From the NCBI GenBank assembly GCA_903823865.1, contig CAIJUJ010000021.1:6732-70731 (forward strand): 64,000 nt of DNA, given 5' to 3'. Shown here in pieces: positions 1,372-58,004 of the stretch; within the stretch, counting starts at the first letter, position 1; each line of letters starts with the position of its first letter. This stretch comes from an uncultured bacterium (GTDB taxonomy: Bacteria; Patescibacteriota; Minisyncoccia; Phycocordibacterales; GWA1-40-21). The notes beneath the pieces are model-generated. The model saw only the letters and a program-made list of their open reading frames with translations, did no database searches and had not been told where the DNA came from. A program made the position numbers and the translations under genes.

Positions 1372-1563
1372 TTGTGCCAAGGGCCGGAATCTCTCCTTCA
1401 CCTTTCATTTCATCGCCACTCAATTCGGGCTAGGCACCAGTTCATTCACCCCGCAAGCTTGCGGGGTATCATTCCGCTGTTCTCGTCCGGACAGAAGCAA
1501 AGCAGTTTGCTTCCTCCCTCAAGCCAATTTTAAAAACACCAAATGTTGGTGTTTTTAAAATTG
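1372..1563 (-). repeat. tRNA-3'-matched structured element, core type D, after tRNA-Phe
   Basis: 17-nt direct repeat of tRNA 3' end (1372-1388 = 1561-1577); core nearly identical to 56989-57073. Confidence 0.85.
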
Positions 1564-2460: not shown

Positions 2461-2605
2461 TGTGCGAGTGGCGAGAATTGGCTATTACTTAGCCAGGTGC
2501 TTTTCCGCCTCACTTCGCTCGTATATAAAAGCCTTTCGATTCTCGCCCACAAGCAAAGCAGTTTGCTTGTTCACTCGAATTTAAAAACTAATCGTTTTTA
2601 AATTG
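2461..2605 (-). repeat. tRNA-3'-matched structured element, core type C, after tRNA-Gly
   Basis: 18-nt direct repeat 2461-2478 = 2604-2621; antisense arms 2535-2547 and 2572-2577 split by an ACTGCT-loop hairpin; core similar to 57266-57325. Confidence 0.85.
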
Positions 2606-6719: not shown

Positions 6720-6812
6720 CGGACATAAAATTCGGGTCCATCACATAAGTGCATCCTAGCACTTACTCTGGACGCACAAAAATAAAAACGCCATAGAAGC
6801 GTTTTATTTTTG
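6720..6812 (-). repeat. Truncated tRNA-3'-matched element after tRNA-Tyr
   Basis: Hairpin, then degenerate antisense tgtgcgtcca...gatggacccgaa split by hairpin taagtgc/gcactta; no direct repeat. Confidence 0.55.
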
Positions 6813-15065: not shown

Positions 15066-15298
15066 CAAGAAATATCATGAAATGATATTTCGGGGAGAAT
15101 CGAAAGACGGAGTGAGCTTGGGTTGGGACCCAAGCGCAAGACCTGTGATAGTTTTATATGAGTGAAAGCGAAATATAAAACAGAACAGGTATACAGATTC
15201 TGTAAGAATCACGAAGTCCGTTTTCAGCAGAAAACGGGTGCGAGTCGGGGTCGAGAAAATTTGTGAGCGACGGCGAACAAATTATTCGTGACCGATTC
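15066..15298 (+). repeat. tRNA-3'-matched element, core type A with nested type-B module
   Basis: Hairpin, antisense ggggagaatcgaa, agacggag...ggggtcg...gtgacc, then gattc. Confidence 0.8.
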
Positions 15299-15396: not shown

Positions 15397-15713
15397 CAGA
15401 TTAAAAGTGACCCATTCCTTGGGTCACTTTTAATTTGTCAGGTGGGAATCGAAAGACGGAGCGCGACGGCGCGAGTCAGGGTCGCGAGATTTTTCAGCAG
15501 AAAAATACTTGTGACCGATTCCCTAATCTTGCTTACGTGTGGGAATCGAAGAACCTTGAGTATATTTTTGAGCATGTACCCATGTGAAAAAATACGAAAG
15601 GTGTACCGTCCATGTAATGGAAGATAAGCGAAGCGGTCCCACCGTTTCTTTAATTTTATTCGGGGTGGGACCCAAATAAAATTTTGTCGAAAAATACTTG
15701 TGACCGATTCCCC
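15397..15713 (+). repeat. Tandem tRNA-3'-matched elements (A, B, partial A) after tRNA-Leu(TAA)
   Basis: Antisense gtgggaatcgaa twice; aaaaatacttgtgaccgattccc twice. Confidence 0.85.
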
Positions 15714-16416: not shown

Positions 16417-16655
16417 CAGTAAGAAAACGCCGATAGGGCGTTTTTCTGTGCGCAGGAGAGGACTTGAAAGACGGACTGAGCAAAGGCGAAGGAGCCGGGG
16501 TCGCGCAAATTTTCAGCAGAAAATTATGCGTGACCAAGTCCTCTTGTGAAATAGAAAAAATACGAAGACTATACTGACCATGTAATGACCAAGATTCCTC
16601 TCCCGTGTCGTGTATTTAATTTGGGGTGGGACCAAAATTAAATACTCGTGACCAC
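16417..16655 (+). repeat. Tandem tRNA-3'-matched elements (A, partial B, partial A) after tRNA-Leu(TAG)
   Basis: Antisense ggagaggacttgaa; direct copies caagtcctct (16535) and tcctctcccgtg (~16596). Confidence 0.85.
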
Positions 16656-54386: not shown

Positions 54387-55262
54387 TTAATTCAAGCTTT
54401 TCTCCGCATCAATAAATTCATTGAGCTCACCATTAAGTACTTTGTCAATATTATTTGTTTCAATATTTGTTCTATGATCCTTAATCATTTTGTATGGATG
54501 AAAAACATAGGAACGAATCTGACTCCCCCATTCTATAGACATCGTTTTACTAATATGCAAACCTGCATGTCTGGTTATATTTTCTTCTTCTTTTAATTTA
54601 AATAATTTACCTTTGAGAATTTGAACTGCTTTTTCTTTGTTTTGTAACTGCGACCTCTCTGAGGCACCGCGAACAGATATTCCTGTGGGGATATGAGTAA
54701 TTCTCACTGCAGTCTCGCGTTTATTTACATTCTGTCCTCCTGGACCACCAGCTTTTGATGTTTCAATTTTTAAATCACTTTCTGGTATTTCAATATCTCC
54801 ATCTTTTTCTATTTTTGGTACTACTTCTACTAAAGAAAAAGAAGTTTGCCTCAAATTTTTTGAATTAAACGGAGAAAGTCTTACAAGACGATGAACTCCA
54901 GATTCGTGCTTTAATAATCCATATGCGTTTGGGCCTAAAATTTCAAGAGTAATATTTCGGTAGCCGCCATGGTCATTCTCTGTTTCGTCTAATATTTTAT
55001 AATCCCAATTATTTTTAATAAAATATTTTGAATACATTTCAAACAATATCCTAGAAAAATCTTCCGCATCATCTCCACCCGCACCAGAAAAAATTGTCAT
55101 TATGGCATGTCCTTTATTATATTTATCTTTACCAAGAATTTCAGATTTTAGAAAATTAAGCTCTTTCAATATTGCTTGTGCCTTATTTTTGTCAGCCCAA
55201 AAATCCGGAGCCTGCATCTCTTTTTCTAACTCTTGAATTTTTTTATTTATTTCCTCTTTCAT
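54387..55262 (-). CDS. prfB: Peptide chain release factor 2 (short, no frameshift)
   Basis: SPF tripeptide (RLSPFN), [12 protein letters not shown]. Confidence 0.92.
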
Positions 55263-56901: not shown

Positions 56902-57117
56902 CGGCTGGCCGGAGTTTCTAAGATTTCGAGTCATGCTGGCCGGAGTTTCTCCCTCGACTAAAGCCTCGTCTTCACTCGGCTTTGTCTGGGCACCAGCTCA
57001 TTCACCTCGCAAGCTTGCGAGGTATCATTCCGCTGTTCGAATCCGGACGCAAGCAAAGCAGTTTGCTTGCTCCAGCCGCGCAAATAAAAATAACCACTTT
57101 CGTGGTATTTTTATTTG
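56902..57117 (-). repeat. tRNA-3'-matched element, core type D, after tRNA-Asp
   Basis: Perfect antisense tgcgcggctgg | ccggattcgaac split by the ACTGCT hairpin; two direct copies at ~56902 and ~56935. Confidence 0.88.
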
Positions 57118-57191
57118 CGCGGCTGGCCGGATTCGAACCGGTGACCTCTCCCGTGACAGGGGAGCGCTCTAACCAACTGAGCTACAACCGC
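57118..57191 (-). tRNA. tRNA-Asp(GTC)
   Basis: Cloverleaf; loop CTGTCAC; G73. Confidence 0.95.
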
Positions 57192-57242
57192 ATTTATTGA
57201 CAAACAAAACAATAACAGAAAAATGTTGTTTCTACAATATTT

Positions 57243-57395
57243 TTCTTGTGTCGACGGGTGGAATCTGCTACTACATAGCCAGGTATTTTTCCACCTCGCT
57301 TCGCTCATACGGAAAAATCTTTCAATTCCGCCACGGAGTGAAGCAGTTCACTCCTCTCGCACTCGAATAAAAATGAATATTCATTTTTATTCTTG
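57243..57395 (-). repeat. tRNA-3'-matched element, core type C, after the CAT tRNA
   Basis: 23-nt direct repeat 57243-57265 = 57390-57412; hairpin ggagtga-actgct-tcactcc. Confidence 0.85.
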
Positions 57396-57469
57396 TGTCG
57401 ACGGGTGGAATCGAACCACCGACCTTAGCTTTATGAGTGCTATGCTCTAGCCAACTGAGCTACGTCGAC
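57396..57469 (-). tRNA. tRNA with CAT anticodon (elongator Met or Ile2)
   Basis: Cloverleaf; loop CTCATAA; isotype not resolvable by eye. Confidence 0.85.
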
Positions 57470-57520
57470 ATATAAAAACCAAAATTAATATAACATTTTT
57501 TCGCCTAAAAACAAATGAAA

Positions 57521-57775
57521 CTACTTGTTTAGATAGTGTTTTAATTGTTTATTTAAATATTTTCTTCCAGAACCACCTTTTAGAAATTTCTCTCTACCAA
57601 CCGCATCATCTATATTCAAATATGCTTCATAATAAACAAGTTTCCAGTTGGTTTTATCTTTTGTAGTTCTACACCCCTTTCCTCTTAGATGGTCAGTGAT
57701 TCTTTGTTTTAGATTTGATGAATATCCAATATAAAAACTCTTATCTTCATTTTGTAAAACATATGTATAATACAT
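57521..57775 (-). CDS. Stand-alone GIY-YIG nuclease (84 aa)
   Basis: MYYTYVL...FYIGYSSNLKQRITDH...LVYYEAY...A..RE.FLK; start reassigned. Confidence 0.9.
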   Translation of the reverse strand: MYYTYVLQNEDKSFYIGYSSNLKQRITDHLRGKGCRTTKDKTNWKLVYYEAYLNIDDAVGREKFLKGGSGRKYLNKQLKHYLNK

Positions 57776-57930
57776 TTGGTCATTATCACTTTTATACAAA
57801 AATAAATCAAATTTTTGGCCTGCCACGAGACAAAAACTACCTTGGCCGCGCAAAATAAATTGATTACAATTTATCGCCCGGCTCACGAAAAACAAAAACT
57901 ACCGATAAAATCAGTAGTTTTTGTTTTTCG

Positions 57931-58004
57931 TGGTTGCGGGGGCCCGAATTGCACGGACGTCTCCAGGTTATGAGCCTGGCGAATTACTGCTACTCTACCC
58001 CGCT
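57931..58004 (-). tRNA. Initiator tRNA-fMet(CAT), atypical
   Basis: 1:72 mismatch, GCGGGG acceptor, loop CTCATAA, encoded CCA, T-loop TGCAATT. Confidence 0.85.

Follow-up and report, generated by a model that had tools for sequence, protein, structure and literature searches.

Host-matched inserts behind tRNA genes of a patescibacterial genome: mobile elements of the TLR/RtT kind beside a GIY-YIG gene with a repeat of its own

The window, which is the whole stretch of 64,000 nucleotides analysed here, represents contig C21 of a 677 kb genome that is 96.8% complete, and contains 15 tRNAs called by ARAGORN. In the segment under study, a stand-alone GIY-YIG gene has an initiator-type tRNA upstream of it and an elongator-type CAT tRNA and tRNA-Asp downstream (see the table). 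An earlier, sequence-only reading had described this gene as bracketed, on the tRNA strand, by two elements and three tRNAs. The common strand and the three tRNAs were confirmed, but since the CAT and Asp tRNAs are downstream of the gene, both of the named elements also lie downstream of it.

Each element follows the order tRNA tail, hairpin, antisense tail, shared core and direct copy of the tail. The common layout that had been described for 8 of the 15 tRNAs held good: the arm antisense to the T-stem and T-loop (anti-T arm) matched the host tail at 11/11 positions for Gly, Cys, Leu-TAA, Leu-TAG and Asp and at 9/11 for Phe, Tyr and CAT, and the remaining seven tRNAs of the window scored 6-8/11. 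The unit lengths given earlier were also correct, both from tail to copy (Phe 189, Gly 143, CAT 147, Leu-TAA 137) and when measured to the first copy at Asp (187) or to the first short copy at Leu-TAG (136). Of the direct copies claimed at seven tRNAs, only those at Phe, Gly and CAT were full-length (15-16/16); the others were partial: Asp and Leu-TAG kept 13/16, Leu-TAA had about 7 nt and Cys some 5 nt. Cys also lacked the anti-acceptor part, which had decayed at Phe and CAT, and a second unit, with core B, came after the Leu(TAA) element. Genome-wide, an arm of at least 10/11 was present at 15 of 43 tRNA and tmRNA genes, the tmRNA among them. Core modules also flanked a 5S gene and lay within NTS-type repeats of this genome.

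Table. Features of the locus and of the other elements in the window, with positions counted from the first letter of the window.
Feature	Position	Strand	Remark
tRNA-Asp(GTC), host gene	57117..57191	-	ARAGORN
AT-rich terminator-like hairpin behind tRNA-Asp	57082..57116	-	near-identical hairpin in same-genus G005
Antisense Asp acceptor 3' strand	57072..57081	-	exact complement, not a copy of the tRNA 5' strand
H1 hairpin module, looped out of the Asp arm at the acceptor/T-stem junction	57047..57071	-	
Antisense Asp T-stem 3' strand and T-loop	57036..57046	-	11/11
Core D behind Asp, two covarying hairpins	56950..57035	-	
Asp tail, two partial direct copies	56902..56948 (56933-56948, 56902-56917)	-	
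Elongator-type CAT tRNA (Met or Ile2), host gene	57395..57469	-	
CAT element, front part	57321..57394	-	decayed anti-acceptor included
Fold-back hairpin of CAT element	57365-57394	-	
H1 variant of CAT element	57333-57354	-	
Anti-T arm of CAT element	57321-57332	-	9/11
Core C behind CAT tRNA, GAA and GTA triloop hairpins	57266..57320	-	
Full direct copy of CAT tail	57248..57265	-	
Stand-alone GIY-YIG gene, 84 aa	57521..57775	-	PF01541, E 4e-15
Family E repeat, begins at CCA of initiator-type tRNA	57817..57933	-	
Initiator-type tRNA-Met(CAT)	57931..58004	-	without T-loop element in this genome
tRNA-Phe element	1375..1562	-	decayed arm, anti-T 1480-1490; core D 1394-1479; copy 1375-1390
tRNA-Gly(CCC) element	2463..2604	-	arm 2535-2545; core C 2479-2534; copy 2463-2478
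tRNA-Tyr remnant	6731..6811	-	hairpin, H1 variant, decayed arm, without copy
tRNA-Cys element	15067..15292	+	short hairpin; anti-T arm 15094-15104; core A with nested B module
tRNA-Leu(TAA) element	15398..15524	+	arm 15443-15453; core A 15454-15517; short copy
tRNA-Leu(TAG) element	16418..16609	+	arm 16458-16468 without H1; core A 16469-16536; two copies

Three parts of the locus (56941-57052, 57114-57472 and 57491-57987) recurred with 0-5 differences in contigs of another study (run X5), which argues that the locus is not an assembly artefact. Elements did stand often at contig ends in the loci that were fetched, as an artefact might produce; however, the H1 pattern occurred in 81 of the 151 genomes of the order, against one match of a reversed control pattern, and the cores covary, so that an artefact has a negligible probability. 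The elements are real, non-coding inserts behind tRNA genes. An Rfam search at gathering and E-value thresholds returned the tRNAs alone, besides generic hairpins far under the cut-off.

A pattern of H1 followed by the complement of the T-loop matched at least 121 stretches in species genomes. The matches listed came mostly from Patescibacteria records, with a few from bins labelled Elusimicrobium, Burkholderiales and Gammaproteobacteria (labels as given; mis-binning is possible). Among these matches, a tRNA or tmRNA was called on the same strand, no more than 600 nt upstream, for 58 of the 80 H1 loci with flanks. An independent core-C pattern without H1 gave 21 matches outside this genus; 17 of them lay within 400 nt behind a called tRNA, whose T-loop was matched by the arm on reading, and the other four comprised two at contig edges and two behind tail-like copies. 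The placement behind tRNA 3' ends that had been seen in the window thus recurred in other genomes.

We scored the first units of 50 loci, representing 25 tRNA types plus tmRNA, against the adjacent tRNA and against tRNAs for other amino acids. The match to the own tRNA was 0.85 for the anti-T part, 0.81 for the anti-acceptor part and 0.79 for the direct copy, values that are slightly underestimated, the T-loop being misplaced in several rows; the corresponding matches to other tRNAs at the same loci were 0.54, 0.57 and 0.58 (permutation p<5e-5 for all three parts). At wobble or mismatch positions of the tRNA stems, the arm was the complement of the tRNA 3' strand at 8/8 acceptor positions and at 24/28 informative T-stem positions, and where the T-loop departed from the usual TTC, the odd loop was copied in 4/4 arms. 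An arm of at least 10/11 was found within 140 nt in 135/240 cases (a set enriched for elements by the way it was fetched, and including 2 false matches from facing tRNA genes), compared to 1/137 in the chance control 700 nt downstream. A direct copy of at least 13/16 accompanied the arm at 71/133 armed loci and was decayed in the others. Arms therefore track the adjacent tRNA in other genomes, as they had been said to do in this one.

Two genomes of the same genus, G005 and G123, were compared with the source genome, with 40/41 and 39/41 tRNA regions scored. The CAT, Gly-CCC and Phe sites were empty in both, and the flank found there immediately behind the tRNA stands here behind the downstream tail copy, so close relatives do supply empty sites. 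At Asp, our genome had core D and G005 core C, behind nearly the same hairpin. Among 34 tRNAs shared by the three congeners, 4 were armed in all, 9 in none and 21 patchily, and the armed tRNA and tmRNA genes numbered 15/43, 20/40 and 13/39, with 2 false arms from facing tRNA pairs in the source genome (G000) excluded. The 20/40 refers to G005, which is 99% complete and which also carries a 55/55-identical core behind both Asp and Ala. Core pairs reaching 50/55 were found in 3/491 within-genome and 2/27 orthologous comparisons, orthologous pairs mostly having different cores. Chimeric loci included a Glu arm with a Ser tail (L111) and a His arm with a foreign tail (L033), and the four core types A-D swap and nest. 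The tracking arms, the empty sites, the swapped cores and the finding of one identical core at two tRNAs together uphold the view that this is a non-autonomous element retargeted to each tRNA, its arms being produced by copying of the host's tail. A core C model found none in 150 other genomes across the phylum, with 37 candidates per genome and strict filters, and for that reason we draw no range limit for core C.

Other arrangements in the source genome were also observed. At C2:140-330 a core D element matched to tRNA-Ser(GCT) stands without its tRNA, which sits on C21; it may have been displaced by an island or split by the assembly. At C6:127-289, the 3' two-thirds of tRNA-Gln(TTG) are duplicated behind the gene, and the arm of the element comes after the duplicate. 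Independent core B insertions lie at C8:6646-6823, C29:38153-38315, C7:13217-13301 and C29:5900-6600; their targets are NTS hairpins, a duplicated tRNA-Asn 5' end and 5S-gene copies, and the last, GTA-loop hairpin of core B seems to be made from target sequence.

Tyrosine-integrase att sites duplicate the tRNA tail from the T-loop, which is a known att sub-location, and the direct repeat seen here also begins in the T-loop. The elements could therefore be scars of such integrating elements, and the Ser element apparently displaced from its tRNA onto another contig would fit. However, inverted arms, cores that covary and the occurrence of an identical core at several tRNAs are not features of att scars, and unlike tRNA att islands, the inserts have an inverted arm, no cargo and no integrase nearby. 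No integrase or island was found beside the repeat; the genome has one PF00589 gene and, at 96.8% completeness, 0 matches to the reverse transcriptase profile PF00078. The H1 pattern had no match in viral contigs, nor the core patterns in phage and plasmid records. We consider this origin very unlikely.

The cores are under structural constraint. In core D, two-sided changes occurred in 20/27 pairs, a number reached by 0/500 shuffles, and 97.7% of the pairs were maintained as paired compared to 35-46% in slid controls; core C had two-sided changes in 10/15 pairs. On the tRNA strand of 115 cores, GNA was found in 42/85 triloops, GNRA in 1/90 tetraloops and UNCG in none, where shuffled cores gave 3.5 GNA triloops and 1.7 GNRA tetraloops and the opposite strand 5 GNA, counts that are not independent because the cores are related to one another. 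With stems of 3 bp, a 23S control had GNA in 3/53 and GNRA in 8/45, compared to 52/207 and 8/235 in the cores. GCGNAGC mini-hairpins are exceptionally stable as DNA, and the RNA octamer counterpart cited is much less so (PMC13037366).

These loops bear on whether the inserts act as DNA or as RNA. Functional RNA trailers, whether serving as antisense control of pre-tRNA folding or releasing small RNAs from read-through transcripts like RrB in E. coli, would account for the strong covariation, for the position of the elements on the transcribed strand of their tRNAs and for an arm that can pair with the whole tail in predicted folds. The first hairpins have loops of the RNA type (4 GNRA and 2 UNCG among 26 tetraloops), and E. 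coli TLRs are transcribed and processed (PMC8144298). The core loops, in contrast, are GNA triloops, a terminator-like hairpin stands between tRNA-Asp and its arm, and occupancy and core type vary among congeners. Arm-tail mismatches comprised 18 G-T/T-G and 17 A-C/C-A (small numbers, from arms of 9-10/11 only), and so do not indicate a wobble bias. The GNA loops and the lack of G-U bias indirectly favour a selfish single-stranded-DNA module over an antisense RNA switch; the switch proposed in the sequence-only reading is thus disfavoured, and we regard RNA trailers of either sort as quite unlikely.

The E. coli tRNA-end repeats (TLRs), reportedly first described in 1978, also follow tRNA or 5S genes and terminate with the host 3' end repeated. 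PMC8144298 counts 22 TLR copies at 10 loci, takes 18-19 nt copied from the host 3' end as their defining mark and gives their function as unknown; the rRNA-linked ones bind Hfq and CsrA. Our elements likewise stand directly behind a tRNA or rRNA gene and carry such a tail copy, which matches the host at 15-16/16 positions for Phe, Gly and CAT. We re-read the K-12 tyrT/tyrV and lysT-lysQ loci and found short inverted arms matched to Tyr or Lys, a common core and tandem units; at lysQ, a terminator is followed by an anti-T-loop arm and then by the repeated terminator. The closing stem of Rfam RtT (RF00391) is the inverted arm paired with the tail copy, as is found in the elements. The assertion that the E. 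coli repeats do not have an inverted, host-matched arm was therefore mistaken, and the layout of the elements is already known. GNA was present in 10/25 triloops at the E. coli TLR loci, and a tandem GA motif has been noted in RtT (10.1101/2020.02.04.933952).

The sequences themselves differ. The RF00391 model reached at best 18.7 bits in this genome, against a cut-off of 45 and at a non-element site, and the core C and D models had no match at the E. coli loci. With a shared layout and models that fail in both directions, the elements are TLR-like by position and not members of RF00391. In contrast to the TLRs, the arm here usually spans the acceptor stem to T54 with H1 looped out, and four core types swap and nest, with 13/39 to 20/40 genes armed in the three congeners. 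We conclude that the inserts are highly mobile elements of the TLR/RtT kind, new relative to the known TLR/RtT. A full-text literature search found nothing on such elements in Patescibacteria or on TLR mobility; the TLR papers of 1978, 1991 and 1999 may already note the inverted arm.

The 84-aa protein is a single-domain GIY-YIG of the ~80-100 aa size class and one of six small ones in the genome, all of which are recovered by the profile used; NCBIfam gave nothing over the cut-off for it. In a quick tree (121/187 sequences kept after thinning at 72% identity), its closest relatives formed a branch of 11 rows with an SH-aLRT of 95. A called tRNA 3' end lay 87-280 nt upstream in 7/11 members, the focal gene counted (Gln four times, Trp, Thr and initiator Met); of the other four, two had a tRNA by eye and two none. 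Branch members share the family E repeat, a cognate hairpin repeat upstream of the gene that starts at the tRNA CCA and whose hairpins are, at the focal locus, CCACG...CGTGG and GTGAGCCG...TTTGCGCGG. By eye, family E hairpins resemble the last hairpin of core A. One locus (L202) carries a T-loop element as well, placed after the tRNA and before the family E repeat of the nuclease.

A similar arrangement is known from Ssn, where a small single-domain GIY-YIG is tied to the ssDNA hairpin repeats NTS/SRM and SsnA cuts ssDNA next to its hairpin repeat (PMC11893778); the main text of that paper names neither tRNA nor CPR nor Patescibacteria. The source genome has both NTS-type doublets and an NTS-flanked GIY-YIG, and the focal protein, 33% identical to the latter, falls on a separate, distant branch of the quick tree, which suggests that it lies outside the Ssn clade (cd10448). 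By its layout, the neighbouring GIY-YIG clade with family E is a candidate for a new Ssn-like pair. Cores A-D, unlike Ssn repeats, come without a flanking nuclease gene. Small GIY-YIG genes were missing from the 121 H1 matches listed (191 kb) and from 29 core-C loci (79 kb), and among 202 GIY-YIG ORFs inspected by eye there was none between an arm and its tail copy. The core C and D models found nothing in family E, the focal gene is absent at this locus in G005, and the only protein families that recurred near the H1 loci listed were housekeeping neighbours and spurious frames lying across the elements. The adjacent GIY-YIG is not a cis partner of cores A-D, and the link drawn earlier from proximity falls.

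A small Ssn-like GIY-YIG could still act in trans as a dedicated mobiliser that nicks the folded single strand, the adjacent gene being one candidate. SsnA's cleavage of ssDNA beside a hairpin repeat, the DNA-like hairpins of the cores and the presence of six small GIY-YIG genes in the genome agree with this, as does the closeness of 40/202 GIY-YIG ORFs to a tRNA (within 450 nt). In the 151 genomes of the order, H1 counts correlated with PF01541 matches (rho 0.31, p 1e-4) and matches to the focal protein were associated with H1 (odds ratio 2.7, p 0.007), both uncorrected for kinship. Co-occurrence with the nuclease, as the sequence-only reading would have it, was thus borne out as a weak correlation of counts and not at the loci themselves; such a correlation, kinship uncorrected, leaves room for a nuclease that is trans-acting or recently lost. 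Against a mobiliser of this kind, 13/32 genomes without a strong PF01541 match still carry H1 (presence test p 0.11), and profile searches found neither a small GIY-YIG nor a Y1 transposase in G005 and G122, whose sole PF01541 frame is ~410-430 aa, G005 being the genome with the identical core pair. The absence of a small GIY-YIG at the H1 and core-C loci and the clade's possession of family E in place of cores C and D point the same way. A dedicated GIY-YIG mobiliser appears unlikely.

Other non-autonomous ssDNA hairpin elements that are moved in trans, such as REP/REPIN and the ends of IS200/IS605 (PMC11893778), are not known to have host-matched arms. The single Y1 gene of this genome has flanking hairpins of its own. 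Template switching is the mechanism behind tandem inversion duplications. These duplications (DUP-TRP/INV-DUP) have the same direct-inverted-direct order and a fold-back junction at a palindrome (PMC4689423); they are, however, kilobase-scale, one-off events, whereas here a conserved foreign core occupies the second junction at many tRNAs. The product is a tandem inversion duplication in miniature, its second junction being filled by a foreign core.

From these end products (arms, cores, empty sites and identical cores) we infer, at slightly less than an even chance, that the inserts move between tRNA genes as folded ssDNA and that template switching copies them into the new site. A 3' end lying immediately beyond the tRNA tail would fold back at the flank hairpin and copy the tail in reverse as far as T54. 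Copying would then switch to a donor core, the T-loop consensus common to all tRNAs serving as microhomology, and after the core had been copied would return to the chromosome at position 57, leaving the tRNA intact. Tandem units and nesting could afterwards start from the direct copies. For such a process the host's own replication and repair enzymes, working on exposed single strands, would most likely suffice, and such strands may be provided by highly transcribed tRNA genes or by transforming DNA; ComEC was present in 4/4 genomes checked. Simple fold-back is expected to leave a copied flank after the direct repeat, and this was seen in 3/30 elements with a near-perfect copy and, by eye, at Asp in G005 and at E. 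coli lysQ. H1 lies inside the arm without host homology at its edges, and two more template switches or a separate insertion would therefore be needed.

A broader proposal is that TLR/RtT and the Patescibacteria inserts form one cross-phylum class of mobile, protein-less ssDNA modules that rebuild their ends from every new tRNA target, in a dedicated reaction of nicking and fold-back carried out by a small nuclease in trans, which we find rather unlikely. In genome-reduced bacteria, between a third and a half of the tRNA genes bear such inserts, and a distant phylum here supplies what E. coli lacks, namely sites without an insert, exchanged cores and one identical core behind two different tRNAs, along with a DNA-type folding signature common to the inserts and the E. 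coli TLRs. With the same layout and turnover in a distant phylum, the question of whether TLRs are a mobile ssDNA element or an RNA device becomes a direct test in K-12. If the cross-phylum reading is true, E. coli repeats regarded as 'RNA' for 45 years would be selfish DNA with a target-programmed insertion chemistry.

The GIY-YIG clade to which the nuclease next to the elements belongs has a repeat of its own at tRNA CCA ends, and further GIY-YIG arrangements were observed in the loci collected. In the source genome, GIY-YIG genes at C29:34285-34589 and C15:18000-18272 have inverted ends that finish exactly at a start codon. These ends are shared by many gene-less copies of ~150 nt (for example C10:12733-12902 and C23:9611-9791), and two further families with such inverted ends lie around C4:4877 and C8:9607. 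An NTS-flanked, Ssn-like GIY-YIG (C8:37306-37873) stands directly behind comEC (C8:36490-37284), and NTS doublets are scattered through the genome. GIY-YIG clades at tRNA 5' halves, which they duplicate, were seen at L141, L143, L159, L282, L286, L307, L318, L325, L333, L349 and L353, some of these loci carrying a GC-rich hairpin plug. Another GIY-YIG pair (L145 and L281), which has a hairpin of its own, stands behind tRNA-Glu(CTC), past a T-loop element. Upstream of the GIY-YIG at L132, an initiator-type tRNA that ARAGORN misses appears, by eye, to be split by a group I-like intron. Elsewhere in the window, a release-factor gene (54387-55262) begins immediately after tRNA-Thr(CGT).
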